A DNA stretch of 64,000 nt from a virus. The stretch spans positions 1 to 64,000 of the IMG/VR virus record IMGVR_UViG_3300027777_000034; one strand, given 5' to 3'. Shown here piece by piece: positions 7,381 through 62,525 of the stretch (the first letter of the stretch is position 1; each line of letters opens with the position of its first letter). The position numbers were made by a program, and so were the translations under genes. The notes under the pieces were generated by a model that saw only the letters and a program-made list of their open reading frames with translations, searched no databases and was not told where the DNA came from.

Positions 7381-7452
7381 GGAGATATAGCTCAAAGGCA
7401 GAGCAAATTTCTCATAAAAATTTGGTTCTTGGTTCGAATCCAAGTATCTCCA
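7381..7452 (+). tRNA. tRNA with CAT anticodon (elongator Met or Ile2); CCA not encoded
   Basis: acceptor GGAGATA/TATCTCC, D arm GCTC/GAGC, anticodon arm AATTT-CTCATAA-AAATT, T arm CTTGG-TTCGAAT-CCAAG. Confidence 0.9.
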
Positions 7453-7453
7453 C

Positions 7454-13116: not shown

Positions 13117-13863
13117 ATGTTTAACGAAGATGATTTAAATAAGTGGAAAAACTCAAAACCATTTAATCATTTAGTAATAGACAATTTTTTAGAAAACTCA
13201 TTGGCTATGCAAATAGCTGATGAGTTTCCTTCTATTAATGATGACTTTTGGTTTTATTACAACAATGCTGTTGAAGTTAAAAAAGCCTGTGATATGTGGT
13301 GTAAGTTCCCAAAATCAATATACAAAACAATATTTGAATTAACGAGCAAAGAATTTGTAGACTCTCTATCTAACTTAGTTGGTAAACAAGTTTGGGCAGA
13401 CTATGGGTTAAATGGCGGTGGTATACACGCTATGGGCAATTCTGGAAAATTAAACCCACATTTAGACTACAGCATACACCCAAAGCTTGGACTACAAAGA
13501 AAGATAAATTTAATAATATACTTAACAAAAAATTGGGATACCTCTTGGGGTGGAGCTATAGAGCTATGGTCACACGATGAAGAGAATAATAAACCAAAAC
13601 AGGTTGAAGTTAAAATAGATTCCACTTTTAATAGGGCTTTATTGTTTGATACAACTCAAAATTCATGGCATGGCATATCAGATCAAATCACATGTCCAAT
13701 CGACAAATCAAGAAATTCAATAGCAATATACTATGTTTGTGAGCCAGAGATTGGAAGCGAAGATAGGAATAAGGCTTTGTTTGCCCCAACAGAGGATCAA
13801 AAGGGCGATAAGTTAGTTGAAGAACTTATAAGACAAAGACTTTTGGGGAAATACAAAATATAG
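13117..13863 (+). CDS. 2OG-Fe(II) oxygenase (prolyl-hydroxylase-like)
   Basis: PFNHLVIDNFL, GGGIH, HLD, SWHG, RNS. Confidence 0.85.
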   Translation: MFNEDDLNKWKNSKPFNHLVIDNFLENSLAMQIADEFPSINDDFWFYYNNAVEVKKACDMWCKFPKSIYKTIFELTSKEFVDSLSNLVGKQVWADYGLNGGGIHAMGNSGKLNPHLDYSIHPKLGLQRKINLIIYLTKNWDTSWGGAIELWSHDEENNKPKQVEVKIDSTFNRALLFDTTQNSWHGISDQITCPIDKSRNSIAIYYVCEPEIGSEDRNKALFAPTEDQKGDKLVEELIRQRLLGKYKI

Positions 13864-13890
13864 TAAATATTAATGTTACTTAAGCGAATA
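13864..13890 (+). promoter_or_regulatory. early promoter ahead of the methyltransferase operon
   Basis: TAAATA-N15-CGAATA, exact. Confidence 0.7.
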
Positions 13891-14331: not shown

Positions 14332-14383
14332 TGCTTTTTAATCTGTAAGAAAAACGCATACATATTTCTTACAAGGAGGTTTG

Positions 14384-15283
14384 ATGTTAAAACTATATGA
14401 TATGTTTTCGGGGATAGGTGGATTTGCTTTAGGGTTTCAAAAGGAAGGTTTTGAAGTAACTGCTTTTGCAGAGTTAGATAAGTATCCTTCTGAAGTTTTA
14501 GCAAAGAATTTTCCAAATATCCCTAATTATGGAGATGTAACAAAAGTAAAGTATAAAAAAGATCAGTTTGATTTGATTGTTGGGGGTTTTCCCTGCACAG
14601 ACATATCTATAGCAAGTCAATCAAAGGAGGGCATATATGGAAAAAGATCATTCTTGTGGAAAGAATTCTTCCGAGCAGTTAAAGATGTTCAACCAAAATA
14701 TTGTGTCATTGAAAATGTCTTTATGCTGCTTGGAAGAGGGCTTGAAACGGTACTTCAAGACCTTGCCAGCATCGGGTACGATGCGACTTATACAACGCTC
14801 GATGCCCAATACTGTGGAACAGCCCAAAGAAGGCGTAGAGTTTACATTTTGGGAGTCCGTGATGGAATCACCTCCAATAGCGATATACTCCAGTTTGGCC
14901 CTCGTAGTACTAGAACCTGTCAACAAAGCGTGGAACTTGTCAAAAAGAGCTTTGAATGGAATTTTAAAAAGAGCATGTGGTTCAAAGAAACCTTTGCCTA
15001 CTTTACTCGCCAAAGAAGTGATCAGTTTGATGAATGCGGAGTGTCATCAACCCTAACAAAAAGAGATTATAAGTCTTTTACAGATTTAGTAGTATCTGAT
15101 GGCAACATACGCAGAGTAACACCTACAGAAAGGCTTCGCCTTATGGGTTTTCCTGACGATTGGCATATTGAAAATGCTTCAAGTACTGATAAGTATAAAT
15201 ATAACGGTATGCATGTACCTTCAGTTCAATACATAGCAAGATGTTTAAAGGAGTACGAAAGATGTTTGAATTTGCAAAAATAG
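14384..15283 (+). CDS. DNA (cytosine-5) methyltransferase, alpha chain
   Basis: motif I FSGIGG, IV GFPC, VI ENV, VIII QRRRRVY, IX RRVTPTERLRLMGFP; atypical motif X. Confidence 0.92.
   Translation: MLKLYDMFSGIGGFALGFQKEGFEVTAFAELDKYPSEVLAKNFPNIPNYGDVTKVKYKKDQFDLIVGGFPCTDISIASQSKEGIYGKRSFLWKEFFRAVKDVQPKYCVIENVFMLLGRGLETVLQDLASIGYDATYTTLDAQYCGTAQRRRRVYILGVRDGITSNSDILQFGPRSTRTCQQSVELVKKSFEWNFKKSMWFKETFAYFTRQRSDQFDECGVSSTLTKRDYKSFTDLVVSDGNIRRVTPTERLRLMGFPDDWHIENASSTDKYKYNGMHVPSVQYIARCLKEYERCLNLQK
14637..15056 (+). CDS. nested out-of-frame ORF resembling the M.EcoHK31I-type methyltransferase beta polypeptide
   Basis: AAGGAGG 6 nt before ATG; TLPASGTMR...SSL...LE...WNLSKRALNGILKRA...KPLPTLL. Confidence 0.65.
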   Translation: MEKDHSCGKNSSEQLKMFNQNIVSLKMSLCCLEEGLKRYFKTLPASGTMRLIQRSMPNTVEQPKEGVEFTFWESVMESPPIAIYSSLALVVLEPVNKAWNLSKRALNGILKRACGSKKPLPTLLAKEVISLMNAECHQP

Positions 15284-15894
15284 CAGAAAAATTTGACGAA
15301 CATTTAGCTGGACAATTATATTGGCATAGCAATTTCGTTAATCATTTCTTGCCTGAGATTGCATCTGTCTTTATGGCAGAAGGAACAAATGTATATGATT
15401 TTGGTGCATCAACAGGTAATGTAGAAGTGGCTTTATCAAGTATGATTAAGTCAAGGAGCATAGATTTTATACCTGTGGAAAAATGTAAAGAGATGGCAGA
15501 AAGATATAAGGGAGAAAGCGAAGTGGTTGTTGATGATTTTTTAAATGTGTATATGGAAGAGTTTTCATTTGCTACATGTATTTTGTCTTTATGTTTTATC
15601 CATCCATCAAAAAGAGAAACATTTATTGATTCTTTAAAAAATAATTGTATGATTGGCGGTGCTTTTATAGTTTTGGAGAAAATGAAATCCAAGGGTGGAT
15701 ATTTAGGAACAGCTTTAAATAGAGTCACATGGCGTAATAAGATTGAAAATGGTGAATCTTTAAAGATGGTAATCAATAAAGAGCTTTCTCTAAGTGGTGT
15801 GCAGTATCCGCTAAGTGAAAAAGAACTTGAAGGATTTGAGTTAATATGGGCTTATGGTGATTTTCGTGCTTATATTTGGTTAAAGGAGTTTTAA
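15262..15894 (+). CDS. CmoA-like (carboxy-SAM synthase family) SAM-binding protein
   Basis: FDEHLAGQL, VYDFGASTG, GGAFIVLEK, KELSLSGV. Confidence 0.7.
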   Translation: MFEFAKIAEKFDEHLAGQLYWHSNFVNHFLPEIASVFMAEGTNVYDFGASTGNVEVALSSMIKSRSIDFIPVEKCKEMAERYKGESEVVVDDFLNVYMEEFSFATCILSLCFIHPSKRETFIDSLKNNCMIGGAFIVLEKMKSKGGYLGTALNRVTWRNKIENGESLKMVINKELSLSGVQYPLSEKELEGFELIWAYGDFRAYIWLKEF

Positions 15895-18185: not shown

Positions 18186-18416
18186 ATGGAAATTGGAAGT
18201 TTGGTTTTTGCTAGAAAATTGAATGAAGCTTTTACTATTTATACCGATTCTGGTAATATAGAGGTTACCATTAAAGAAATAAATACATATTCAAATCAAG
18301 TTAGATTGCGTATTAAAGCACCAAAAAACATTAAAATCATGCGAGATAATGCAGTTGATTTAAAACCAAAAGATATATTGTTCACACCAACAATTCCAAG
18401 ATCGGAGAAAAGATGA
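18186..18416 (+). CDS. csrA: carbon storage regulator CsrA-like RNA-binding protein
   Basis: LVFARKLNE.F.I...IEVTI...QVRLRIKAPKNIKIMR. Confidence 0.8.
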   Translation: MEIGSLVFARKLNEAFTIYTDSGNIEVTIKEINTYSNQVRLRIKAPKNIKIMRDNAVDLKPKDILFTPTIPRSEKR

Positions 18417-19690
18417 ACAGAAGACATTTTATAAAACATACGGCTGGTATTTCTGCACTTTCTTTTGTGGGCAAAGTTAAAGCACAAGAAGAAACACTTA
18501 AAAAGTCTGGAAAAAAACTTATTGTGTTGTGGATGGGCGGTGGTCCTAGTCATATGGATCTTTGGGATTTAAAACAGGGGCAAGCAAATGGTGGTGAATT
18601 TAAACAAATACTCACTTCAGCAAATGGAGTTAGCATTAGTGAAGTTCTTCCAACAATCGCTTCTCAGTTTCACAATTTAGTTGCTGTTCGATCTCTTGTG
18701 ACCAACGAAGGAAGTCATGAGAGAGGAACCGTTTTAATGAATACTGGGCATCAACCAAGCGTTGTTGTGCAGTATCCATCCATTGGATCGGTAACATCTT
18801 CTCTTTTAACATCAAAAGAACTACCACTGCCAGGATTTATTGGTATTGGAAATTCAGCACAAAGAATTGGGCCAGGATTTTTAGGAACAAACCTAGCACC
18901 ATTTACAGTACAAAATGCTGGAACTCCACCAGAAAACATTAAAGCACCAAAGGAAATAGATGATGAAGAAAGACTTAGGAGAAGACAAAGACTGTTTTAT
19001 ACATTGGAAGACGATTTTTCGGAAAGAATTGCACCTCATATTAAAAATAGTGTGGCTAGAGAAGCTATGGGCAATCATGCTCAATCTCATTCTAATATCT
19101 ATGGCAAAGCCTTTGATCTTACACTATCTCCGTTAAAAACAATATTTGAACTAAAAGACGAAAATCCTAAAACGATTGAGTCTTATGGTGGTAGAGGAAA
19201 TAACTTTGGAATGGGTTGTCTTCTTGCTAGAAAGTTAATTTCTAAAGGAGTTAGCTGTGTACAAATCGATTTGGGTGGATGGGATAATCATAGCAATATC
19301 TTTAGTGCTATTAGGAATGGGAATGGGAATCGTCTTGATATGGGCATGGGATATTTGGTCAAGGACTTGGTAGATATGGGTATGTGGAAAGATACTGTAG
19401 TTATGTGGATGGGAGAGTTTGGTCGTACACCCAAGATTAATCAAAATGGTGGGCGTGATCATTGGGCCAGATGTTGGTCTGTGGTTCTTGGTGGTGGTAC
19501 TATCCAAGGTGGACAGGTTTATGGTTCTACAACCGCTGATGGTATGGATATTAAAGACAAACCTTGCAGTATTTCAGATGTTTATGCTACAGTATACAAA
19601 GCTTTGGGTTTAGACCCAATGTTCCAAATTAGGGATAATTTAGGGCGACCAATACCTATATCAGAAGGAAAGGCTTTAGATATATTTTGA
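18413..19690 (+). CDS. DUF1501 family protein with Tat signal
   Basis: MNRRHF; WMGGGPSHMDLWD; GGWDNH; GEFGRTPKIN..GGRDHW. Confidence 0.9.
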   Translation: MNRRHFIKHTAGISALSFVGKVKAQEETLKKSGKKLIVLWMGGGPSHMDLWDLKQGQANGGEFKQILTSANGVSISEVLPTIASQFHNLVAVRSLVTNEGSHERGTVLMNTGHQPSVVVQYPSIGSVTSSLLTSKELPLPGFIGIGNSAQRIGPGFLGTNLAPFTVQNAGTPPENIKAPKEIDDEERLRRRQRLFYTLEDDFSERIAPHIKNSVAREAMGNHAQSHSNIYGKAFDLTLSPLKTIFELKDENPKTIESYGGRGNNFGMGCLLARKLISKGVSCVQIDLGGWDNHSNIFSAIRNGNGNRLDMGMGYLVKDLVDMGMWKDTVVMWMGEFGRTPKINQNGGRDHWARCWSVVLGGGTIQGGQVYGSTTADGMDIKDKPCSISDVYATVYKALGLDPMFQIRDNLGRPIPISEGKALDIF

Positions 19691-22555: not shown

Positions 22556-23179
22556 GTGAAAACTGATAAAATAACAACTAGAATTGAAAATGGTAATAGT
22601 TTAGCAGATAAAGTTGCTAAATATTTAAACTTTAGATTTAAGTACGAATTTGAAAAAGCTTCTATTGAAGAAGATAAAAAGTTAATGATTGATTATAAGT
22701 GCAAAAAGACTAATAAAACTGCACAAATGAAGTGTCGTGAAAATAAATCTGACATTATTTATGAGGCAAAAAGATTTTATTCTACTGATGGTTCATCTTA
22801 TGAAGAAGCAAATGGTAGAGATGTTCGAACTGAAGCAACATTGTATGTGTGTTTGTCCGCAGACAAGCGTAAAATCATAGTTGCAGAAACAGAAGCAATT
22901 AAAAAAATAGTTCAAAAAGAAATTCAAAAATTAGAAATAACACTTAATCAAGTTAAACAATACGAAGAAGAATGTCAGAACAACAGAAACAAAACAAAAA
23001 AACTTTTATCTAATAAATCTAGAATTGAAGTATGGTTTAAAGTTGACGAGGGAGTAGATTCAAGGCATTATAGTAAATTGCTTGTTTTTATACCTTATTC
23101 TGCTATATTTGAATCTGTGGTAATTGATTTAAAAAGTCACGAAAACATTGAAGATGAAAGGACTTGGAAAAATGGATAA
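22556..23179 (+). CDS. putative PD-(D/E)xK-like nuclease
   Basis: ED...IDY...QMKCR. Confidence 0.5.
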   Translation: MKTDKITTRIENGNSLADKVAKYLNFRFKYEFEKASIEEDKKLMIDYKCKKTNKTAQMKCRENKSDIIYEAKRFYSTDGSSYEEANGRDVRTEATLYVCLSADKRKIIVAETEAIKKIVQKEIQKLEITLNQVKQYEEECQNNRNKTKKLLSNKSRIEVWFKVDEGVDSRHYSKLLVFIPYSAIFESVVIDLKSHENIEDERTWKNG

Positions 23180-23768
23180 TGAAATCATATTTAATCAAAG
23201 AATACCTAGTTTGCTTGTTGTTGACAACTTTTATAAAGATCCAGATTGGATAGTTGAAAAAACAAAAGATTTTGATTTTAAAGAAGAAAACAAATTCTAC
23301 AAAGGAAAAAGAACAACAGGTTGTTTGTTTCCTTATGTAAAAGAAGAATTTGAAAAGTTGTTGCAAGTAGAAATAGTAGATTGGTTAAATCAACCAATGA
23401 ATGGTGTTTTTCAAATAACATCTGGAAATGACCCATTAGTATGGCATAGTGATTCACAAGACTATGCAGCAGCAGTATACTTAACTAAAGATGGCCCAAC
23501 AAATGCTGGAACATCATTTTGGAAAGATAAAAAATATGGCTGTAGAAGACCACCAAGTCATCCATTGGAAAATAGAGAAGACATAAATGAATCAGACATA
23601 TACACACAGCATAGCTTATTAAATGAAGATAGTTGGGAGTTAGTAGACAGAGTTGGGTCTGTATATAACAGACTAGTTCTTTGGGATGGAAAAATGATTC
23701 ACTCAGCCACAATGTACGGTGAGTTTTCTAGGTTAGTTCAACTATTCTTTTTTAATGTGAAAAAATAA
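23172..23768 (+). CDS. 2OG-Fe(II) oxygenase-like protein (DUF6445-like)
   Basis: VVDNFYKDPD, HSD, GTSFW, YNRLVLW...HSA, RLVQLFF. Confidence 0.75.
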   Translation: MDNEIIFNQRIPSLLVVDNFYKDPDWIVEKTKDFDFKEENKFYKGKRTTGCLFPYVKEEFEKLLQVEIVDWLNQPMNGVFQITSGNDPLVWHSDSQDYAAAVYLTKDGPTNAGTSFWKDKKYGCRRPPSHPLENREDINESDIYTQHSLLNEDSWELVDRVGSVYNRLVLWDGKMIHSATMYGEFSRLVQLFFFNVKK

Positions 23769-25019
23769 ATGCCATACTTTTCTATAGTTACGCCAACGCA
23801 CAATACTCAATTCCTTGCTAGACTTTCTCGCTCTATAGCAAGGCAAACATTTAAAGATTTTGAATGGGTAATTGTTCCTAATGGAAATGCCAATATTGAT
23901 GTTGAGTCTTTGGATTTTAAACCAAGGATTGTAGTATCAAAAAATCCTGATTCAAAATTAATTGGACTCTTCAAAAAAGAAGGGTCTATGGGATCAAATG
24001 GCATTGTGGTAGTTGAAGTTGATCATGATGATGAATTAACAGAAGATTGTTTGCAGGAATTATATAACGCATTTAATTCAGATCAAACAATTGATTTTGC
24101 ATATTCAAATTGTGCAGAAATAGACCCTGATGGAAAGCCATTTGTTTACTCTGATTATTATGGTTGGAGAAATAGACCATTTAAATATCATGGCAAAGAT
24201 CTTTTAGAACTAATATCATTTGATTCAACTCCAGCATCATTCTCTAAAATTTGGTTTGCCCCAAATCATGTTCGTGCTTGGAAAAAATCGTTTTACGAAA
24301 AGATTGGTGGACATGATGAAACAATGGAAGTTTTAGATGATCATGACATACTTTGCAGGACATACATACAAGGAAATGTTAAACATATAGATAAGTGCTT
24401 GTATATTTACTATAAGCATAAAAACAATACTTGTTACGGTGAAAAGAATGCTTTCATTCAAGAAGAGACATTAAACATTCATGATAGATATATCTACGCA
24501 TTAGCTGAGAAATGGTGTGATCTTAATGGTTTGCTTAAGATAGACCTTTGTGGAGGTTTTAATCCTCCAAAGGGGTACAAGTCAGTAGACATGCATAACG
24601 CAGAAATTATACATGATTTAAACGATCCTTGGCCTTTTAAAGATGGTGAAGTGGGATTGATAAGAGCACATGATGCACTTGAGCATTTAAAAGACCCAAT
24701 TCATGTGATGAAAGAAGCTTATAGATGCCTATGCCCAATGGGTTGGTTTTTAACTCAGACTCCATCTACAGATGGTAGAGGTGCTTTTCAAGATCCAACA
24801 CATATATCATTTTGGAATAGCAATAGTTTCTGGTATTACACAAAAAGAGATCAGGCTAAATACATTGGAACACCAGTAAGATTTCAAGCAAATAGAATTA
24901 AAAACTTTTATCCAACCGAATGGCATAAGACACACAATATTCTTTATGTAAAAGCTGACATATTAAAAGTTCCAGATGAAGCATTAAAAATGAGAGTTCC
25001 TGGTGAAGTATCAATATGA
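23769..25019 (+). CDS. GT2 glycosyltransferase fused to class I methyltransferase-like domain
   Basis: FSIVTPTHN, DHDD, DDHD; C-terminal DLCGG, HDALEHL, DPTH. Confidence 0.85.
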   Translation: MPYFSIVTPTHNTQFLARLSRSIARQTFKDFEWVIVPNGNANIDVESLDFKPRIVVSKNPDSKLIGLFKKEGSMGSNGIVVVEVDHDDELTEDCLQELYNAFNSDQTIDFAYSNCAEIDPDGKPFVYSDYYGWRNRPFKYHGKDLLELISFDSTPASFSKIWFAPNHVRAWKKSFYEKIGGHDETMEVLDDHDILCRTYIQGNVKHIDKCLYIYYKHKNNTCYGEKNAFIQEETLNIHDRYIYALAEKWCDLNGLLKIDLCGGFNPPKGYKSVDMHNAEIIHDLNDPWPFKDGEVGLIRAHDALEHLKDPIHVMKEAYRCLCPMGWFLTQTPSTDGRGAFQDPTHISFWNSNSFWYYTKRDQAKYIGTPVRFQANRIKNFYPTEWHKTHNILYVKADILKVPDEALKMRVPGEVSI

Positions 25020-25573
25020 ATCACATATATCAACTCCCACAGTTTGGAGAAGATTGGTTTAATTATAAAGACTTTTATAAGTCAATGGTTAAAAAGTTTC
25101 CTTATGGAAGCAAATTTATTGAAATTGGATCGTGGAAAGGAAAAAGTTCAGCTTATCTTGCTGTAGAAATTATAAACTCTAAAAAAAACATAACATTAGA
25201 TTGTATAGATACATGGAAAGGAAGTTCTGAACATGTAGCATATGAAAATATAATATCAGATGATTTATACGAATTATTTATTAAAAATATATCTTCTTTG
25301 TTAAGTGTAATTAATCCAGTTAGATTAGATTCTATATCTGCATCAAAAAACTATGAAGATAAAACAATAGACTTTATATTTATAGATGGTAGTCATGATT
25401 ATGAAAATGTAAAGGCAGATATAAATGCATGGTTGCCAAAAGTTAAATTTGGTGGAATTATATCTGGTCATGATTATGGTTCTTGGAAAACTGTAACAAA
25501 AGCAGTTGATGAGTTTTTTGAAGATAAAAAAGTTTTAATTATTGGCGACTGTTGGATTTATGAAAACAATTAA
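25016..25573 (+). CDS. class I SAM methyltransferase (Methyltransf_24-like)
   Basis: EIGSWKGKS, FIDGSHDY, GGIISGHDY. Confidence 0.85.
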   Translation: MNHIYQLPQFGEDWFNYKDFYKSMVKKFPYGSKFIEIGSWKGKSSAYLAVEIINSKKNITLDCIDTWKGSSEHVAYENIISDDLYELFIKNISSLLSVINPVRLDSISASKNYEDKTIDFIFIDGSHDYENVKADINAWLPKVKFGGIISGHDYGSWKTVTKAVDEFFEDKKVLIIGDCWIYENN

Positions 25574-31910: not shown

Positions 31911-32070
31911 AATACTTGTAAACTGTTTAGGTTGGTGTAATAAACAATTTTTAAGTTATGATCCAGCAACAAATAGGGTTTGTAAAAAATGCAAAGAAAA
32001 AATAAACAATAAAAAAAATGAAATGGGAAAAAATTATTTTTCTGAAAAAAGAGTAGAGGAAAATGAATAA
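31891..32070 (+). CDS. small Zn-finger protein
   Basis: CLGWC...NRVCKKC; AAGGAG SD. Confidence 0.6.
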   Translation: MKKTKGKILVNCLGWCNKQFLSYDPATNRVCKKCKEKINNKKNEMGKNYFSEKRVEENE

Positions 32071-33112
32071 ACCAAAAGTTGCACTTATAACACCATCATT
32101 AAGCATGGGTGGTGCTGAAAGATGGATAGTTACACTTGCAAAATTTTTTAATAGATTAGATCCTTATTTAATTTTAAATTTAAGTGGTTACAGTGATTCA
32201 ATTTTGCTTGAAGATATTCCAAAAACAACAAAAGTTTTATCAAATTTTTATTCAAATGAAAGAAGCATTATAAACGCTTTAAGTGATGCAGATGCAGTTG
32301 TTTCTTGGTGTTTTAATTTAAATATTAGTTTAAAAAATGAATTAAATTGTCCAACAATAGATGTTTCACATAGTGATCCATCATGGAAAAATCATTCATT
32401 ATTAATAAAAGAATCGTGTAAAAAATCAAAATATCATGTTGGAGTAAGTAAAGTAGCTGCATCAGCATTTAAAGAAAATAATTCGACTGTAATATACAAT
32501 GGTATAGATACAGAAAGACTTAATCAATTTAAAGGAAGAATCAAACAAAGAGAAGAATGGGGTTGTGAAAATAAAAAAGTTGTTATTTTTTTAAGTAGAT
32601 TATCAGAAGAAAAAAATCCAAAAATTATTTTAGAATGCTCAGAACTTTTTGATGAAAGCTGGAAGTTTTTATTTGTTAATATTGGTTTATTAAAAAAAGA
32701 ATTTAACACAATAAATAAACCCAATATAAAAATTATTGAAAAAACTAAAAATATTGGAGATTATTATTCTGGTGCAGATGTAGTTGTTCTTCCTTCAGAT
32801 ATAGAAGGTATGCCATTAGTTTTATTGGAATCTTGGTTTTGTGGTATTCCTGTTGTAACAACTAATTATAATTCTTATTTAGAATTAACTAACACTCATG
32901 GAGAATTAGCGTTATCAACAAATATAAGACCAACAGCAATTGAATTTGCAAATAAAATACAACAAGCTTTTTATGAAGGAAGAAATTCTAATAAAGTTGT
33001 TTTAGCAAAAAAAATTGTTGAAAATAATTACACATATCAAACAATGATTAAAAATTGGGAAGATTATATATTTTTAAAAATAAAAGAACATAATGAGAAC
33101 ATTAATGCTTAA
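32063..33112 (+). CDS. GT4 glycosyltransferase
   Basis: GGAER, YNGID, RLSEEKN, PSDIEGMPLVLLES. Confidence 0.88.
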   Translation: MNKPKVALITPSLSMGGAERWIVTLAKFFNRLDPYLILNLSGYSDSILLEDIPKTTKVLSNFYSNERSIINALSDADAVVSWCFNLNISLKNELNCPTIDVSHSDPSWKNHSLLIKESCKKSKYHVGVSKVAASAFKENNSTVIYNGIDTERLNQFKGRIKQREEWGCENKKVVIFLSRLSEEKNPKIILECSELFDESWKFLFVNIGLLKKEFNTINKPNIKIIEKTKNIGDYYSGADVVVLPSDIEGMPLVLLESWFCGIPVVTTNYNSYLELTNTHGELALSTNIRPTAIEFANKIQQAFYEGRNSNKVVLAKKIVENNYTYQTMIKNWEDYIFLKIKEHNENINA

Positions 33113-33821
33113 GTATTTTTTTGGTTTTTTTGGTTCTGATCGTTCTGGTAAATGGTGGACTGTTCGTTGCGAACACATTAAAGATAATCCATCGTGTATA
33201 GGTTGTGGTACAAAAAAAGATGTTCAAGTTCATCATATAATACCAGTTAGTGTTGATGCATCTAAAGAGTTATGTAGAAACAACCTATGTACTCTTTGCA
33301 AATATTGTCATTTTGTTTTTGGGCATTTGCACAATTATAAAAATTACAATCCAGAAGTAATTAGGGATTGCCAAGAGCATTACAAAAGAGTAAAACAATT
33401 TAGAGTTAAGACTTTTCAAAGACCTATTTCTTTATGGAGGACTATTATGGCTAAGTTTTTTGGTTCTATTGCTTTGGTTTTTTTAGGTTTTTCAATTTAT
33501 GTTAGTCATATGTATGTGGTAGAGACTAATAAAAATATAACAGTTAAAGAACTTTTTTATGCTGAAAACAGGCTCTTAAAGGATGAGATTTATGCAGAGA
33601 GAAACAAACCAACTTATGAAAATGGCTATAGAGATGCTATTTTAAGGGCTGGTTCACCAACTGGCTCTGGCTCATACCGTGATGGTTGGGAGGCTTGTGC
33701 GAAGCTTTATGCTGATGGTTCATGGACAAGCGGTTATCATACAGCACTAGAACAATTTGGTTGGAAGAATGAATCAACAGCATTCAAAAATTCAAACCCT
33801 CAAGCTGTTTCTATGAAATAA
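33093..33821 (+). CDS. HNH domain fused in frame to a membrane protein that has its own internal start (33447)
   Basis: CIGCG..VHHIIP..NLCTLC..CH; GGAGG + ATG at 33447, then TM helix. Confidence 0.7.
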   Translation: MRTLMLKYFFGFFGSDRSGKWWTVRCEHIKDNPSCIGCGTKKDVQVHHIIPVSVDASKELCRNNLCTLCKYCHFVFGHLHNYKNYNPEVIRDCQEHYKRVKQFRVKTFQRPISLWRTIMAKFFGSIALVFLGFSIYVSHMYVVETNKNITVKELFYAENRLLKDEIYAERNKPTYENGYRDAILRAGSPTGSGSYRDGWEACAKLYADGSWTSGYHTALEQFGWKNESTAFKNSNPQAVSMK

Positions 33822-33832
33822 TCTTTACTATT

Positions 33833-33865
33833 TTACCCTCATACTGTGTATTAGTATGGGGGTAA
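33833..33865 (+). promoter_or_regulatory. RBS-occluding hairpin with promoter-like loop
   Basis: TTACCCTCATACT-gtgtatt-AGTATGGGGGTAA, 13-bp stem. Confidence 0.6.
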
Positions 33866-33867
33866 TT

Positions 33868-34242
33868 ATGAAAAAAAAATCGCACAACAGTAAGGCTTTT
33901 GGTGAAATTTCTGGAAAATATTGGTCTTCTTTAATAAAAAACGCAAAAAAAAGAAGTATAAAAGTAACTGCAACAATAGAAGAAGCTTGGGAAATATTTT
34001 TAAAACAGAATAGAAGATGTTTTTATACTGGTTTAAAAATAACTCATAAAAAGTATTTGAAAAGAATTAATAATAAAGACATATATTCTTTAGGAACGGC
34101 ATCGTTAGACAGAAAAAATAGTGGCCTTAGTTACACTAAACAAAATATACAGTGGGTTCATAAAGATGTTAATTATATGAAAATGAGTTTAAACGAAAAG
34201 TATTTTATAAAACTTTGCAAGCTTATATCTAGGAGATTCTAA
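33868..34242 (+). CDS. HNH-like (homing-type) endonuclease
   Basis: AKKR...KQNRRCFYTG...ASLDRKNS..Y...NIQWVHKDVNYMK. Confidence 0.75.
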   Translation: MKKKSHNSKAFGEISGKYWSSLIKNAKKRSIKVTATIEEAWEIFLKQNRRCFYTGLKITHKKYLKRINNKDIYSLGTASLDRKNSGLSYTKQNIQWVHKDVNYMKMSLNEKYFIKLCKLISRRF

Positions 34243-34727
34243 TGCCTTTAAAAAATTGTTCTGAAAATGGTAAAGATGGTTGGAAATGGGGCGATCAAGG
34301 TAAGTGTTATCTTGGAAAAAATGCTAAAAAACAAGCCATTAGACAAGGAATATCTATTGAAGGTCCAGAAAAATTTGCTAAATTAATGAAATCTCAATCG
34401 CATGAAGATCTTTATATGCAGCTTTCAAATGATGAAAAAGAATTAGCCAATTCACTTATTTCATTATCGCAAAAGGTTGGTCCGCTTGATAAAGCCGATG
34501 GCATTTGGATTGGTTATGAAAATGCAGAGAATAATTCTGTAAAAAACATTGGTGTAAAGTGTGGCAATTGTGCATTGCACAAATCAGAAAATGCATGTGC
34601 AATTATTGATCAACAAATAGAAATGGATGGCGTTTGCAGATTTGCAGTAATACCAGATGGCTATGTTAATGCTATTCAAATAGAAAAGGACATAGAAGAA
34701 TACTTTAATGAAAATAATAATAAATAG
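34242..34727 (+). CDS. hypothetical protein with Cys-cluster domain
   Basis: GWKWGDQGKCY; CGNC...C...GVC. Confidence 0.65.
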   Translation: MPLKNCSENGKDGWKWGDQGKCYLGKNAKKQAIRQGISIEGPEKFAKLMKSQSHEDLYMQLSNDEKELANSLISLSQKVGPLDKADGIWIGYENAENNSVKNIGVKCGNCALHKSENACAIIDQQIEMDGVCRFAVIPDGYVNAIQIEKDIEEYFNENNNK

Positions 34728-35193
34728 CCCTGTTTTAAAAACAAAGTGTAAAGAAGTAGATCTAAAAAAAGGAAAGACTATTGCCAAAAGAATGTGGCAA
34801 TTTTTGAACCTTTACAATAAAAAGAACGAAGTAAAAGCTGTTGGTTTAGCAGCAAATCAATTTGGAATAGATGCTTCAGTTGCCATAGTTCTTAAAAATA
34901 ATAAACCATTTATTTTAATAAATCCTAAAATAATAAACTTTTCTCAAATAAAAATTTGTAAAAAGGAAGGGTGTTTAAGTTTTCCAGATGAGCAACTTGA
35001 TGTTTATAGGCATATGTGGATTGAAGTTGTATGTTTAAATCATCCTGATCTTATTTTCTTTGGAAGTAGACCAGAAGAAAGCAATGATAATTTTTTAGAA
35101 AGCTGTATTGCTCAACATGAAATAGCACACTTAAACGGTTTGACTTTTCATGATTTTCAATGGAATAATTCAATAACACCTAACGATTGGTAA
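34708..35193 (+). CDS. def: peptide deformylase
   Basis: GLAANQ, EGCLS, QHEIAHLNG. Confidence 0.92.
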   Translation: MKIIINSPVLKTKCKEVDLKKGKTIAKRMWQFLNLYNKKNEVKAVGLAANQFGIDASVAIVLKNNKPFILINPKIINFSQIKICKKEGCLSFPDEQLDVYRHMWIEVVCLNHPDLIFFGSRPEESNDNFLESCIAQHEIAHLNGLTFHDFQWNNSITPNDW

Positions 35194-35194
35194 A

Positions 35195-35464
35195 ATGAAA
35201 AACCACTATACAAAAGTAAAAAACGCTGTAGATTTTAAAATATACAATGAGCTTGAGAGTTTTGTTTATAACTCTTTAGTTGAAGATGAGTTAACATCTG
35301 AAGAAAATTTGCGTTCTTTAATTGTTTCTCAGGTAAAAAGAGAACATGGTAGCCTTATTTATTCCAGTATAGAAATAGAAGATACTATAAAAAATCTAAT
35401 TATTAGAAAAATTATTAAAGAAGCAATTGGTATAAAGTTGTCCAAGTTTATTTATAGTCAATAG
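35195..35464 (+). CDS. hypothetical protein
   Basis: 89-aa ORF. Confidence 0.55.
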   Translation: MKNHYTKVKNAVDFKIYNELESFVYNSLVEDELTSEENLRSLIVSQVKREHGSLIYSSIEIEDTIKNLIIRKIIKEAIGIKLSKFIYSQ

Positions 35465-35512
35465 TTAGGGGTATTTATACATGGGCTTTATCCTTTTTAA
35501 AGGAGGTATCCC

Positions 35513-35686
35513 ATGCAAACTTATTTTGAAGTTTGGGCAACAGAGCCTAATGGCAAAACAAGAATAAAAATAGCAGAGTACGAAGAAATTTATTGGCAAA
35601 GAGCAGAAAAAAAAGCTTTATCATTAGAAATGCAAGGATATACTAAGATAGTTGTTTTTGAAAAGATGAGGACCACAAACAAATAA
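35513..35686 (+). CDS. small hypothetical protein, 57 aa (not in ORF track)
   Basis: AAGGAGG SD; MQTYFEVWATEPNGK... Confidence 0.65.
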   Translation: MQTYFEVWATEPNGKTRIKIAEYEEIYWQRAEKKALSLEMQGYTKIVVFEKMRTTNK

Positions 35687-35711
35687 ATTTTATTTGCATA
35701 AGGAGGATATT

Positions 35712-36776
35712 ATGGACATAAATCTCAGTTGCCCAATAAATCAACTTGGTTATGGTGTTGTTGGTTTAAACATTTTTTTAAATTTACAAAAAAATCACAA
35801 TGTGGCACTATGGCCGATTGGGCCAGTAGATTGCGAAGAATCGAAACATGATGCGTTAAGAGCATCTATTGAAAAAACAAAAACATTTAATTACACAGCA
35901 CCAAGTTTAAAAATATGGCATCAGTTTGATATGGCATCTCATGTTGGAAACGGAAAAAAATTTGGTTTAACTTTTTTTGAAACAAATAAAATAAAAGAAA
36001 ATGAAGTTCATCATTTAAAATTTTTAGAAAAAGTGTTTGTTACATCTTCTTGGGCAAAAGATGTTCTTATAAATTCTGGTTTGGAAAGTTCAAAAGTTAT
36101 AGTTGTAAAACTTGGTGTAGATAAAATAGTATTTCCAGAATCTAAAATCGATGATAAAAAAACAACCAAAATAGTTTGTGTTGGTAAATGGGAGATAAGA
36201 AAAGGTCATGATCTTATTATAGATATTATAGAAAGAACCTTTGATAAAGATGATGATTTTAAACTTGTGATGTGCTGTTCTAATCCATTTTTATCAGATG
36301 AAGAACAAAATCACTGGATTTCTTTTTTTGAAAAAAGTAAGTATTTTGACAAAATAATTGTTTTAAAAGAAAGATTAAAATCTCAAACAGATGTTAACAG
36401 ATTAATGCATGGTTCTGATGTTGGAATATTCCCATATCGTGCAGAAGCTTGGAATTTAGAACTTTCTGAAATGTTGTCTATGGGTAAACATTGCATTGCT
36501 ACAAACTATTCTGGCCCAACAGAGTTTGCTAATGATGCTGGTGCAATTTTAATTAATCCAGAAGGCATGGAAAATGCTTATGATGGAAAATGGTTTGATG
36601 GTTCAGCAGAATGGGCTAAACTTGGAAAAAAATATGTGGAAGAATTTTCTTCTGCGTTAAGAAGTATTCATGAACAAAAACAAAAAGGCAACTTAAAAAT
36701 AAACTCTAAAGGTATAAGTTATTTTAATGAAAACACTTGGGAAAAATCTTGTGAAACGATAGTGGGTGAATTATGA
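35712..36776 (+). CDS. GT4 glycosyltransferase
   Basis: LGYG, FET, KWEIRKG, PYRAEAWNLELSE. Confidence 0.85.
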   Translation: MDINLSCPINQLGYGVVGLNIFLNLQKNHNVALWPIGPVDCEESKHDALRASIEKTKTFNYTAPSLKIWHQFDMASHVGNGKKFGLTFFETNKIKENEVHHLKFLEKVFVTSSWAKDVLINSGLESSKVIVVKLGVDKIVFPESKIDDKKTTKIVCVGKWEIRKGHDLIIDIIERTFDKDDDFKLVMCCSNPFLSDEEQNHWISFFEKSKYFDKIIVLKERLKSQTDVNRLMHGSDVGIFPYRAEAWNLELSEMLSMGKHCIATNYSGPTEFANDAGAILINPEGMENAYDGKWFDGSAEWAKLGKKYVEEFSSALRSIHEQKQKGNLKINSKGISYFNENTWEKSCETIVGEL

Positions 36777-58085: not shown

Positions 58086-59999
58086 ATGAATAATTGGACA
58101 GCACTACATTGTCATTCTCATTATAGTCTTTTAGATGGTTTAACAAAGCCAGAATCTATGGCAAAAAGAGCCAAAAGCCTTGGACACAAGTCTATAGCTC
58201 TTACGGATCATGGAACTATTTCTGGCTCTATTTCTTTTAATAAGGCATGTGTTGCAGAAGAAATAAAACCAATAATAGGGTGTGAGTTTTACATATGTGG
58301 TCAAAGTGCTTTGATTCATGATAAGACTAATTCTAAAAATTCTCACTTATGTGTCCTTGCTAAAAACATTTCTGGCTGGTATGAGCTTATAAAACTTTCA
58401 TCTTTATCAAACAATAAAGATTATTTTTATTATAAGCCTAGACTAAGCTTGGAAGATTTTGCACCGTACTCAAAAAACTTAATAGCGTTTTCTGGACATC
58501 CAGGAACACAATTGGCCAGATGTATTTTTCCAGATGAAGCATACAAGTGTGCTAGTCCAGAAGAAGCAAGAGCTTTAATCAAAGATGATTGGTTTGAAGA
58601 ATCTAAGAAGTTATGTTCTAAGCACCAAGACATTTTTGGCAAAGAAAACTTCTTTATTGAAATACAACTTTTTGATAAAGACAACTTGCATTGTTCTGTA
58701 GTCCTTGCTGAATGCCTTAGAAAACTATCTAAAGAAACTGGCATTAAGGCAATAGCTACTCCTGATGCTCATTACGCTAAACAAGAGGATGCTTCTGATC
58801 AAAGAATAATTTTGTGTGCATCTATGGAAACAACTCTTTCTAAGGTAAGGTCATCTTTAGATAAGCATGAAGATTTTGGATTATCTAGCTTTTTTAAATC
58901 AAATAGGTATTACATTCCATCTACTGAAGAGATTTTAGCCCTTCATGAACCAGAAGAGTTAAAAAATTGTTTATTAATTGAAGAGATGTGTGAAAATTAT
59001 TCTTTAACAAAAAAGTCAGTACTTCCAAGTTTTCAATGTCCAGAAAGCAAAAATGAACATGATTATTTAAGAGAGCTTTGTAGAAATGGATGGAAAGAAA
59101 AGTTTTCAGACTTAGAAAAAGATTCATCAAAGTTTGAAAATTATGTTGGAAGAATTAAAAATGAGCTTTCTGTTATAGGCGATGCTGGTCTTGAAGGCTA
59201 CTTTTTAATTGTTCAAGATTATTGTAATTGGGCTAGAAAACAAGGATGGTTAACAGGAAGAGGGCGTGGATCAGGTGCTGGTTGTATGGTTTCTTATTTA
59301 CTTGGAATAACTCAAGTAGATCCAATTGAGCACAATTTAGTTTTTGAGCGTTTTTACAATGCAGGAAGAAATGTTCCAGGCCATGTAAGTCTTCCTGATA
59401 TAGATTGCGATTTTCCAATTACTAAAAGAGATAAGGTAATTGATTACATTAAATCAAAGTATAACGAAGAAAATGTTTCGCAAATGATAACATATAGTAG
59501 GATGCAGGGCAGGGGTGCTTTAAAAGATGTGTTAAGGGCACATGGTTTTTCGTTTGATGAAAGTAATGCTATTACAAAAAATATACCTGATGAAGCTGAA
59601 ATATCTGAACAGCTTCAAGAAATGAAGGAAGATGGTGGAGAATCATCAATCATTGGTTGGGCATTAGAAAATATACCTTCAAAACTTAAAGATTATTGCG
59701 AGATAGACGAACATGGTAATATAACAGGAAAGTTGTCAAAAGAGTTTTCACAAGCTATTAGACTTGAAGGAACTAAGCGTAGTCAAGGAAAACATGCTGC
59801 TGGAATTGTTATAAGTCACACTCCGTTAAAAGATATCTGCCCTATGATCTATGATAAAAAGAATAAGCAAATGATTGCTGGTCTTGAAATGTCAGATCTT
59901 GAATCAATTGGTTTAGTTAAGTTTGATATTTTGGGGGTTGCTGTTTTAGATAAGATAATGGGTTGTATAAATTTATTGAAAGGAAAAGAAAATGAGTGA
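58086..59999 (+). CDS. dnaE: DNA polymerase III alpha, N-terminal part (PHP + palm/thumb)
   Basis: HCHSHYSLLDG, GRGSGAG, FERF, PDIDCDF, HAAG, KFDILG. Confidence 0.92.
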   Translation: MNNWTALHCHSHYSLLDGLTKPESMAKRAKSLGHKSIALTDHGTISGSISFNKACVAEEIKPIIGCEFYICGQSALIHDKTNSKNSHLCVLAKNISGWYELIKLSSLSNNKDYFYYKPRLSLEDFAPYSKNLIAFSGHPGTQLARCIFPDEAYKCASPEEARALIKDDWFEESKKLCSKHQDIFGKENFFIEIQLFDKDNLHCSVVLAECLRKLSKETGIKAIATPDAHYAKQEDASDQRIILCASMETTLSKVRSSLDKHEDFGLSSFFKSNRYYIPSTEEILALHEPEELKNCLLIEEMCENYSLTKKSVLPSFQCPESKNEHDYLRELCRNGWKEKFSDLEKDSSKFENYVGRIKNELSVIGDAGLEGYFLIVQDYCNWARKQGWLTGRGRGSGAGCMVSYLLGITQVDPIEHNLVFERFYNAGRNVPGHVSLPDIDCDFPITKRDKVIDYIKSKYNEENVSQMITYSRMQGRGALKDVLRAHGFSFDESNAITKNIPDEAEISEQLQEMKEDGGESSIIGWALENIPSKLKDYCEIDEHGNITGKLSKEFSQAIRLEGTKRSQGKHAAGIVISHTPLKDICPMIYDKKNKQMIAGLEMSDLESIGLVKFDILGVAVLDKIMGCINLLKGKENE

Positions 60000-60261
60000 A
60001 AAAGAAGAAATTGAATTAATAGCAAAACTAGTATCTCAACAAATGGGATTAGTTCAAGCTGTTTCAGAATGTCAAAATTCAAAAAATCAACTTTCTTTAC
60101 AGTTTATAAAAATACTTAAAGCAATTGTTTTAAAAAACAACGGTAATTTTGTTATAGAAAAAGAATTTTTTGACTCTGCTGATGACAATGATTTTAAATT
60201 AGATATCACAACTGATGATGAAGAATCAATAGTTTTACAATTTTTAGAGAATGAGGAATAA
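59992..60261 (+). CDS. small acidic protein between the dnaE halves
   Basis: 89 aa; overlaps the end of dnaE-N. Confidence 0.6.
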   Translation: MSEKEEIELIAKLVSQQMGLVQAVSECQNSKNQLSLQFIKILKAIVLKNNGNFVIEKEFFDSADDNDFKLDITTDDEESIVLQFLENEE

Positions 60262-60900
60262 ATGTATAGTAATACAATTATGGTTTTTGATTTTGAAACA
60301 GGTTCTTTAGATATAAATAAGTGTGAAGTAATTCAAGTTGCAGCTATGGCAATAAATAGAAAAACTCTTGAACCAATCAAAGATGGTATTTTTGAAACAT
60401 TAATAAAACCAAGAGACTTTAATAATCTTCAAGATGAAGCTCTTGCAATAAATAAAAAAACAAGAGAAGAATTGAAGCTTGCACCAAGCATTGATGCTGT
60501 TTGGAAAAAGCTTGCAGATTTTATTTCGATGTTTAATAACGGCAAAGGAAATATCTCTGCACCAATTCCAGCAGGGAAAAACATAAGACATTTTGATATG
60601 CCTATTTTTCAAAGAGTTTGCTCAGAACTTGGTTATGTAGATAAGAATGGAAATCAGAATTTATTAAATAGAAGAAGCATGTATGACCTTGATGAAATAA
60701 TGATGTTATGGTTTGATAATACTACAGTGGTTCCAAACTATAAGATGGATACACTTAGAGATTTCTTTGGACTATCTAAAGCTAATGCTCATGATGCTTT
60801 AACTGATGTTATACAGACTTCTGATATTATTTTACATTTTTTAAAGTTGCACAGAAGCATTTTCCCAAAAATTAAATTTAAAGATGCATTTAGAAAGTAA
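60262..60900 (+). CDS. DEDDh 3'-5' exonuclease (epsilon-like)
   Basis: DFETG, N..HFD, AHDALTD. Confidence 0.88.
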   Translation: MYSNTIMVFDFETGSLDINKCEVIQVAAMAINRKTLEPIKDGIFETLIKPRDFNNLQDEALAINKKTREELKLAPSIDAVWKKLADFISMFNNGKGNISAPIPAGKNIRHFDMPIFQRVCSELGYVDKNGNQNLLNRRSMYDLDEIMMLWFDNTTVVPNYKMDTLRDFFGLSKANAHDALTDVIQTSDIILHFLKLHRSIFPKIKFKDAFRK

Positions 60901-60902
60901 TT

Positions 60903-62525
60903 ATGAAATATTATAAGTTTGAATGTGGCTGTTCTTGGCCAATAATTGAAGAATCTAAGATAGAAGGTGCTTTACCATTGATGGAAGTTGATCCATTAAA
61001 ATTGCCATACTGTCAGTCAACTTGGGATTTGTTTGCTAGAGGTGATACAAAAGGCGTATTTCAGCTTGAATCAGATCTTGGTAAACAATGGAGCAAGCGA
61101 TTAAGGCCAAAGAACGCAGAACATCTATCTGCCATTGGTGCATTAATTAGGCCGGGAACACTTCGTGCATTAGACGAAAACGGCATTAGCATGACCGCCC
61201 ACTATTGCAAAAGAGCCAACTTTGAAGAACCAGTTGAGTCATATCATCCTGTTGTTGATGAAATTTTAAAATCAACATATGGATCATTGGTGTTTCAAGA
61301 ACAGGCTATGGAGTTATCTAAGTCTGTCGCTGGCTTTACTCTGCAAGAAGCTGATAAGCTAAGAAAGGCTATGGGTAAAAAACTTGCTAGTGAAATGGCA
61401 AAATGTAAAAAAATATTTATTGAAGGTGCTAAAAAGGCTGAAATTGTAAGCGAAAAACAGGCTGAAGAAATATTTAGTTGGATTGAACAAAGTCAAAGAT
61501 ATTCATTTAATAAAAGTCACAGTTGTTGTTATGGTTTAACTGGATATGATACTGCTTATTTAAAAAGTCATTTTCCAGTTCAGTTTTATTGCAGTTGGTT
61601 ATATTACGCAAAAGATAAACTTGATTCTCAACTTGAGATAATGGATCTTGTTGAAGATGCAAGAAAGTTTAATATAGATGTTTTAGCACCAGATGCTTTT
61701 AAACTAAATAAAAATTTTGCAACTGATGGTTTAAACATATGGTTTGGTATTACTGATATTAAGGGGATTGGTGAATCACAATTTAATAAACTTAAAGCAT
61801 CTATGGAAAAGAATAAAGACAAGCTAAATACTTGGGAAAATTTTGTAGTATTTTGTTCTGATGAAATACCAAGTTCTACTATAATAAAACTAATATCTGT
61901 TGGTGGATTTAAAAGATATAATACATGTAGACAAAAACTTTTAGCAGAATATAACTCTTGGGTGCAGTTAACGGATAAAGAAAGAGAATGGATTAAAATT
62001 AATTTTACAGAATCTACCATAGCTGAATTAATATCTTTAGCAGCAAAACCAAAAAAGGAAAATGGCGGTTGCTCTAATCAGAACAGAGTATTGTTTTTGA
62101 AGGACTTGGCTAATTTGCTCATTAATCCACCATCTCCACATATTGATCTTCCTCAATGGTTAATTTGGTCAGAAAAGGATGCTTTAGGCATTTCTTTGAC
62201 TTGTAATGCAATTGATTCATGCGATACTGCACAAGCCAATACTACATGTAAAGAATTTTTAAATGGAAAAACTGGTTTTATGATTTTTGGAGTTGAAATA
62301 CGAAGATGTAAAGAAGTTGTTACAAAAGCTGGTAAATCTCCAGGATCTAAAATGGCTTTTATGTCTATATCAGATTCAACTGGAAAAGTAGATGATGTAA
62401 TATGTTTTCCAGACTCGTACAAAGATAGTTGGTCTTTGTTAAAAGAGGGCAACACTGTTTTAATTCATGGTGAAAAAAGTAGGGGCAGTGATTCTCTTTT
62501 AGTTAAAAAAGTTTTTCAAATTTAG
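60903..62525 (+). CDS. dnaE: DNA polymerase III alpha, C-terminal part (fingers, HhH, OB)
   Basis: GVFQLES, RPG, FQEQ, RKAMGKK, YSFNKSH, IKGIG, MAF..D. Confidence 0.92.
   Translation: MKYYKFECGCSWPIIEESKIEGALPLMEVDPLKLPYCQSTWDLFARGDTKGVFQLESDLGKQWSKRLRPKNAEHLSAIGALIRPGTLRALDENGISMTAHYCKRANFEEPVESYHPVVDEILKSTYGSLVFQEQAMELSKSVAGFTLQEADKLRKAMGKKLASEMAKCKKIFIEGAKKAEIVSEKQAEEIFSWIEQSQRYSFNKSHSCCYGLTGYDTAYLKSHFPVQFYCSWLYYAKDKLDSQLEIMDLVEDARKFNIDVLAPDAFKLNKNFATDGLNIWFGITDIKGIGESQFNKLKASMEKNKDKLNTWENFVVFCSDEIPSSTIIKLISVGGFKRYNTCRQKLLAEYNSWVQLTDKEREWIKINFTESTIAELISLAAKPKKENGGCSNQNRVLFLKDLANLLINPPSPHIDLPQWLIWSEKDALGISLTCNAIDSCDTAQANTTCKEFLNGKTGFMIFGVEIRRCKEVVTKAGKSPGSKMAFMSISDSTGKVDDVICFPDSYKDSWSLLKEGNTVLIHGEKSRGSDSLLVKKVFQI

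Follow-up and report, generated by a model that had tools for sequence, protein, structure and literature searches.

We analyzed a 64,000-nucleotide stretch (the window) of IMG/VR virus record IMGVR_UViG_3300027777_000034, a linear record of 72,393 bp with an estimated completeness of about 45%, and find that it carries a cassette of two overlapping genes, one encoding a cytosine C5 methyltransferase-like enzyme (the methylase) and the other a homolog of CmoA, the enzyme that makes carboxy-S-adenosylmethionine (carboxy-SAM). Its motifs place the methylase in a large family of phage enzymes, here named class II, that combines GGFPC[T/Q/S]DIS with x-[N/C]-G-M in motif X. The link between class II methylases and CmoA homologs is strongly supported. 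On balance, and with moderate confidence, we favor a model in which the cassette carries out carboxy-SAM-dependent carboxymethylation of cytosine at C5, using a class of methylase that has no arginine in its cofactor motif and falls outside the current definition of such enzymes.

The concept of carboxymethylation by a CmoA and a C5 methyltransferase has already been published. In Synechococcus phage S-B43, CmoA makes carboxy-SAM (Yang et al., Nat Commun 2025, PMC12783734), the C5-methyltransferase homolog CmoX makes 5-carboxymethylcytosine (5cxmC) at GC sites, and the ligase CmoY then adds glycine (PMC12783734). E. coli's own CmoA is able to feed CmoX in vivo (PMC12783734). Two features defined candidate CmoX enzymes: an SPPC motif, and Arg350, a residue that contacts the carboxymethyl group and takes the place of Asn304 of M.HhaI; the R350N variant of the CmoX known as SpCmoX is inactive (PMC12783734). 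The cassette described here resembles the S-B43 system (PDB 8YF3) in that a phage CmoA homolog lies beside a C5-methyltransferase homolog without CmoB, in the match of the methylase fold to 8yf3, and in that the CmoA clade concerned, which carries the motif KELSLSG, is paired with class I (CmoX-type) methylases in 27 distinct loci and, in one more, with class I plus a second, unclassified methyltransferase. Unlike S-B43, the two genes overlap directly, there is no CmoY ligase, the CmoA comes from another clade, and the methylase has GFPCT in place of SPPC and no equivalent of Arg350. Our literature search returned no other paper on natural systems, and as far as searched, class II, its strict linkage to CmoA and an apparently host-supplied subset are undescribed, although the supplements of PMC12783734 may list more methylase classes.

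One body of evidence for our model comes from genomic association. The initial annotation had proposed co-occurrence as a check on the pair, and the result is in its favor: among viral loci collected from methylase alignments only (156 loci with 159 methyltransferase open reading frames (ORFs), 144 of them distinct), a CmoA homolog accompanies all 12 distinct class II ORFs, overlapping in every case, versus 0 of 92 ORFs of the GN type, which has the canonical Gly-Asn dipeptide in motif X; some of the sequences counted are relatives of one another, and the events are not independent. A CmoA homolog was also found with 1 of 37 unclassified or truncated methyltransferases, with the single class III enzyme (1/1) and with neither of two class IV-like enzymes. 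A comparison set of 80 bacterial-genome loci held 74 GN-type methyltransferases, none with a CmoA homolog, and only two class II genes. When the collection was seeded with CmoA, the best 80 of 562 viral-contig relatives yielded 53 distinct CmoA-like ORFs. Counting as a partner any methyltransferase within 1.5 kb, 27 of the 53 have a class I enzyme (SPPC plus GR), one has class I together with a second, unclassified methyltransferase, 16 have class II, one has class III (G[F/V]PC[K/L], 'ERCSGIPP') and eight have none. Seven of these eight are without adequate flanking sequence, and of the 32 ORFs flanked by 1.5 kb or more on each side, L062 alone is partnerless. The class II loci form at least ten divergent groups in which both gene orders occur, and in a comparison of 12 divergent, representative loci no genes other than the methylase and the CmoA homolog are conserved as neighbors.

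Partners are moreover interchanged between lineages. The CmoA partners of class II methylases come from two very different lineages, the KELSLSG clade and one resembling the validated enzyme SpCmoA (L090, L091, L170, L174, L182 and L185), and class I methylases likewise draw on both, as in Moraxella phage Mcat8 (KELSLSG clade) and S-B43. On these sequence relationships, the class II methylases on the two lineages probably use the same cofactor. A different account would have the methylase be an ordinary SAM-dependent enzyme making 5-methylcytosine (5mC) and the CmoA homolog serve a separate purpose, either draining host SAM against SAM-dependent defenses or acting on tRNA. SAM depletion was indeed raised by Yang et al. 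as a possible effect of CmoA (PMC12783734). However, an unrelated role for CmoA predicts neither the difference between class II and GN-type methylases, nor overlapping frames in both gene orders, nor the recruitment of two CmoA lineages by one methylase class, and we consider this alternative unlikely.

A role of the CmoA homolog in tRNA modification is further opposed by the gene content of the record. The initial annotation saw no CmoB-like enzyme in the window, and this extends beyond it: there is no TIGR00452 match in the whole 72,393-bp record, itself only about 45% complete. A phmmer search for CmoY-like ligases with SpCmoY and its homolog from Staphylococcus phage F1 returned matches only in class I loci, and none in either the 72-kb record or the class II loci. 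The record likewise contains no asparagine-synthase-type ligase (PF00733), no second C5 methyltransferase and no chorismate mutase (PF01817). Since no amide ligase stands alongside the cassette, the modification would end with 5cxmC itself under our model. Fused CmoA-methylase proteins were absent among the longer proteins searched, which is weak evidence.

Several of the loci have unusual arrangements. Two large phage genomes each contain two separate class II plus CmoA-like cassettes (L029/L032 on a 221,321-bp viral contig and L027/L034 on a 206,326-bp contig), with the motif X variants YKYCGMDVHS and YKYCGMHVPS; a diffusible cofactor would need just one synthase. Class III methylases, with PCK or PCL and an 'ERCSGIPP' motif X, adjoin CmoA homologs at L030:124-1792 and L090:3938-6520, the gene order in L090 being class II methylase, CmoA, class III methylase. 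In the Staphylococcus phages SPbeta-like (L002:3974-5673) and vB-SscS-F1 (L003:3968-6486), cmoA lies beside a methylase with GSPCQSF and a motif X, 'GGVINQ', that has neither Asn nor Arg; in F1 a CmoY-like gene lies between the two.

That the downstream gene encodes a CmoA-type protein is supported by sequence and by structure prediction. It has no Pfam match and scores below the equivalog cut-off of TIGR00740, the CmoA model (E 1.9e-18, 67.1 bits, cut-off 193.3), but validated SpCmoA, at 115.6 bits, is also under 193.3; the CmoA of a Colwellia genome reaches 339.6. The protein matches E. coli CmoA (4iwn/4gek) at E 2e-11. Its AlphaFold2 model (mean predicted local distance difference test score, pLDDT, 88.6) has the CmoA-type class I methyltransferase fold, with 4gek nearest (Z 24.6, root-mean-square deviation (rmsd) 2.3 over 210 residues), followed by 1im8 (Z 24.2) and 4iwn (Z 24.0) and, as the next family, CysG/BelI at about Z 22.5. 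Fold and SAM-binding core are thus shared with CmoA of the E. coli CmoA/CmoB pathway for tRNA uridine 5-oxyacetic acid (cmo5U), from which the phage protein differs in its partner, in a C-terminal region about 9 residues shorter and in the residue at Arg199. A predicted complex between the methylase and the CmoA homolog scored 0.00 and is informative neither way.

Arg199 deserves closer attention, being the sole contact to the carboxylate of carboxy-SAM in E. coli CmoA (PMC4482062). The initial annotation had aligned this Arg by eye to the KELSL segment and had taken its absence as a caveat about the product. The alignment holds, with Glu181 in the Arg199 column, but the caveat is not diagnostic for phage CmoAs, because validated SpCmoA carries Glu there too. 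Across CmoA homologs an Arg occurs at one of three columns: at the Arg199 site in canonical CmoA, four residues further on (+4) in SpCmoA, the Staphylococcus phage CmoAs and L174, or at the Arg161 column in the KELSLSG clade, L090, L091 and L182. From this distribution we infer that Arg161 may replace Arg199 in the KELSLSG clade. An alignment of 29 sequences of this clade has 27 invariant columns, with homologs down to 32% identity, including that of Mcat8. Identity between the phage protein and SpCmoA, which belongs to another clade, is about 23%.

These features bear on a further alternative, in which the cytosine modification is neither 5mC nor 5cxmC, the CmoA homolog making some other SAM analog or the Arg-less methylase handling the transferred group differently. 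The phage CmoA homolog has neither Arg199 nor the +4 Arg of SpCmoA, it forms with L027, L030 and L031 a subclade (Shimodaira-Hasegawa-like approximate likelihood ratio test 99, in a quick tree with long branches) whose partners are only class II or III, and the motif X pocket of its methylase is remodeled and has no carboxylate-binding side chain. Yet the invariant residues of the clade are common to homologs down to 32% identity, among them that of Mcat8, which accompanies a class I methylase; elsewhere, class II methylases have CmoA partners close to validated SpCmoA; and no extra conserved gene lies beside the pair. We regard a different modification as unlikely too.

The positions of the two genes and of their ribosome-binding sites are given in the table below. 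Both gene identities and their overlap, as proposed in the initial annotation, were confirmed. The CmoA-like frame is open from 15241 to 15894, and the ATG at 15262 is its probable start: among the listed full-length homologs, which cover 94-97% of the query, the closest start at the Met of this codon (alignment A5). The overlap would be 43 nt counted from 15241 and is 22 nt from the ATG, which we take as the real value because both the homolog starts and the AAGGAG sequence indicate that start.

Table. The cassette and its ribosome-binding sites (positions in the window).
Feature	Position	Strand	Basis
AAGGAGG ribosome-binding site, methylase gene	14373..14379	+	read from sequence; ATG 14384 lies 4 nt further
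Class II C5 cytosine methyltransferase-like enzyme, 299 aa	14384..15283	+	PF00145, TIGR00675, AlphaFold2 model, motifs
AAGGAG ribosome-binding site, CmoA-like gene, inside the methylase 3' end	15249..15254	+	read from sequence; ATG 15262 lies 7 nt further
CmoA-like putative carboxy-SAM synthase, KELSLSG clade, 210 aa	15262..15894	+	TIGR00740, 4gek/4iwn, model, clade conservation

The methylase is a complete C5-methyltransferase ORF (PF00145, E 3.3e-55, 188 bits against a gathering cut-off of 22; TIGR00675, E 1.2e-49) with intact catalytic motifs. It has FSGIGG (motif I), GGFPCTDIS (IV), ENV (VI), QRRRR (VIII) and motif IX, sharing motif I, the PC of IV, ENV, the QRR of VIII and motif IX with canonical enzymes such as M.HhaI, and has Cys71 of GFPC as the catalytic cysteine; the following residue is Thr, where canonical C5 DNA methyltransferases have Gln. 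Its AlphaFold2 model (pLDDT 82.6) is closest to M.HhaI (Z 26.8, rmsd 2.9 over 248 residues) and also matches CmoX (8yf3, Z 22.1, rmsd 2.9 over 238 residues; sequence E 5.6e-8). Dnmt2-type tRNA methylases share this fold, and one of them, 6fdf, is among the matches (Z 20.9 for the model, E 4.2e-13 for the family profile), which raises the question of whether the enzyme could act on RNA instead of DNA. We consider this highly improbable: the best sequence and fold matches are the bacterial DNA methylases HhaI and HaeIII, its nearest relatives are DNA methylases of phages, in which a target-recognition domain lies between motifs VIII and IX, and for the system's validated relatives the substrate is DNA (PMC12783734).

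What distinguishes the methylase from both ordinary enzymes and CmoX is motif X. The GN(A/S)V of canonical enzymes such as M.HhaI is replaced by x-N-G-M within an atypical YKYNGMHVP (Y-N-G-M-H-V-P), so that the canonical Gly-Asn dipeptide is absent and Tyr-Asn-Gly-Met stands in its place. The best 120 of 684 methylase homologs at E <= 1e-10 are all class II, with GGFPC[Q/T/S/A] and [G/A]-Met in motif X (117 GM, 3 AM), and the Met is invariant in all 120. Among the GN-type relatives (n=23), 100% of sequences keep the motif X Gly and 91% the Asn; in class II (n=120) the Gly column holds Cys, the family consensus, or Tyr, and 84% of sequences have the Asn; in close relatives of the phage enzyme this Asn is replaced by Cys. 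GGFPCTDIS occupies the place of the CmoX SPPC motif (S95 P96 P97 C98) in the methylase, the GGFPC core recurring in all class II relatives, and at the position of SpCmoX Arg350 (HhaI Asn304) the phage enzyme has Asn274 or Met276, neither of them cationic. What it shares with CmoX is the C5-methyltransferase fold with its catalytic Cys and the genomic association with a phage CmoA. Because both SPPC and Arg350 are absent, the methylase lies outside the published CmoX class and, to judge from these motifs, in class II as a separate class.

Which residue occupies the Arg350 position depends on the register of motif X. Four alignments (the single sequence against HhaI, L-INS-i against the 23 nearest GN-type relatives, hhalign against the 14 nearest, and the family profile against HhaI, the last ungapped from motif IX on) agree in placing Asn274 on the canonical Asn (HhaI N304), with the prior Gly replaced by Tyr and with Gly and Met following. 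The claim of the initial annotation that motif X has lost its Gly and kept its Asn therefore describes the better-supported register. MAFFT and hhalign alignments with the distant class I (CmoX) enzymes instead put Gly275 on Gly349 and Met276 on Arg350, and owing to this disagreement the register is unsettled at the three-dimensional level. The end pairs of the structural alignments are divided as well: 296/372 with 8yf3 fits Asn274, and 299/327 or 298/327 with HhaI fits residue 276 or 275. The pair 299/1603 with human DNMT1 fits Asn274 if the DNMT1 Asn is residue 1578, as we presume. Under either register motif X contains no cationic residue. The first alignment made had placed Met276 at Arg350/Asn304, with the Asn not kept, and was reversed by the alignments with the nearest GN-type relatives and HhaI.

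These considerations bring us to how the cassette could work. We envision a scenario in which the CmoA homolog converts SAM and host prephenate to carboxy-SAM, Cys71 of the overlapping C5-methyltransferase-like enzyme attacks C6 of the target cytosine, and the carboxymethyl group is transferred to C5. The phage DNA would then carry 5cxmC at the recognition sites of the enzyme, where it would presumably protect against host nucleases. As the carboxylate-binding position holds neither Arg nor Lys in class II, the cofactor would have to be recognized differently than in CmoX, and we conjecture that backbone amides and the helix N-terminus of the invariant Gly-Met turn could fulfill this function. 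A comparable position has been altered by engineering: for M.MpeI N374K and M.CviPI Y205K, a cationic side chain at the motif X position is reported to be best for use of carboxy-SAM (PMC13288465). Class II resembles these variants in being a C5-methyltransferase scaffold changed at the motif X position flanking the transferable group, but differs from what is described there in that no cationic side chain has been gained.

Several observations weigh against carboxymethylation. Neither at nor beside the motif X position does the sequence offer a cationic residue comparable to Arg350 of CmoX, and if Asn274 is the canonical Asn, the pocket would resemble that of an ordinary methylase; both points fit the plain 5mC alternative, as do the three Vibrio phage records discussed below that have a class II methylase and no CmoA. 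Natural methylases tolerate other residues at this position, M.CviPI for example having Tyr205 (PMC13288465). On the side of the synthase stand the score below the TIGR00740 cut-off and the absence of Arg199; the co-occurrence counts include related sequences; and the cases pointing to a host-supplied cofactor number four records only. The idea of carboxymethyl-cytosine or another non-methyl modification, put forward in the initial annotation, thus gains from the S-B43 precedent (PMC12783734) and from the co-occurrence of class II with CmoA, while the Arg that would explain carboxy-SAM use is missing. A more radical version, to which we give little credence, is that class II and the rarer class III with its 'CSGIPP' motif could be independent Arg-less inventions dependent on the product of CmoA, that their modification would be neither 5mC nor 5cxmC, and that phages of cofactor-making hosts would dispense with the synthase.

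Class II genes without a CmoA are few. Three Vibrio phage records with a class II methylase (S4-7, 1.052.A and 1.233.A), about 50% identical to the phage's methylase, have no TIGR00740 match at E <= 0.01, a model that does detect SpCmoA and the CmoA-like gene described here. Similarly, a class II gene on a contig of a Colwellia metagenome-assembled genome has no CmoA homolog within 4 kb; the Colwellia genome has a canonical cmoA, the one scoring 339.6 bits, adjacent to cmoB. By analogy with CmoX in E. coli, these CmoA-less genes, lying in hosts that make carboxy-SAM, fit a supply of the cofactor by the host. In S4-7 a 208-aa ORF (L088:2391-3017) occupies the usual place of CmoA and shares 14 nt with the beginning of the class II methylase gene; it has no match to any Pfam or NCBIfam family.

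The surroundings of the cassette are those of a phage genome with a GC content of about 30%, the window encoding a ribonucleotide reductase, a DnaB-like helicase, a primase, a DNA polymerase, ThyX, a deoxynucleoside monophosphate kinase and exonucleases. The early promoter that the initial annotation placed at 13864 was not borne out: a sigma-70 scan gives no site there, and the 15 sites of the region are no more than the 16.8 +/- 4.2 of shuffled sequences. Just 5' of the methylase ribosome-binding site, at 14344-14371, lies an inverted repeat (GTAAGAAA ... TTTCTTAC) with an 8-bp stem and a 12-nt loop. Two genes upstream of the methylase is a 2-oxoglutarate-Fe(II) oxygenase (13117-13863; PF13640, E 2.7e-16) that is not conserved beside the cassette in other class II groups. 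Elsewhere in the window, the DNA polymerase is split in two ORFs (58086-62525; phrog_405 positions 41-616 and 632-1073) with an RNase_T-type exonuclease ORF (60262-60900) between them, a DUF1501 protein (18413-19690, E 2.9e-91) begins with MNRRHFIK..., resembling a twin-arginine signal, and a single tRNA-Met (CAT) gene is found at 7381-7453. Glycosyltransferase and methyltransferase genes at 23148-25573, 32063-36776 and 62907-63998 (a GT2 + Methyltransf_11 fusion, Methyltransf_24, GT1-family genes and DUF6445) could have DNA or surface sugars as their targets.

The first description of natural DNA carboxymethylation dates from as recently as December 2025, and candidates were then gathered by SPPC and Arg350. 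Should class II prove to consist of plain methylases, their strict linkage to CmoA would need a different explanation. If they use carboxy-SAM, the modification would be more widespread than the census based on SPPC and Arg350 suggests, and class II would represent a second structural solution for recognizing the cofactor, one without a salt bridge and of interest for engineering carboxymethyltransferases for sequencing. The CmoA-independent subset in Vibrio phages would then be phages that rely on a tRNA-modification cofactor of their host.

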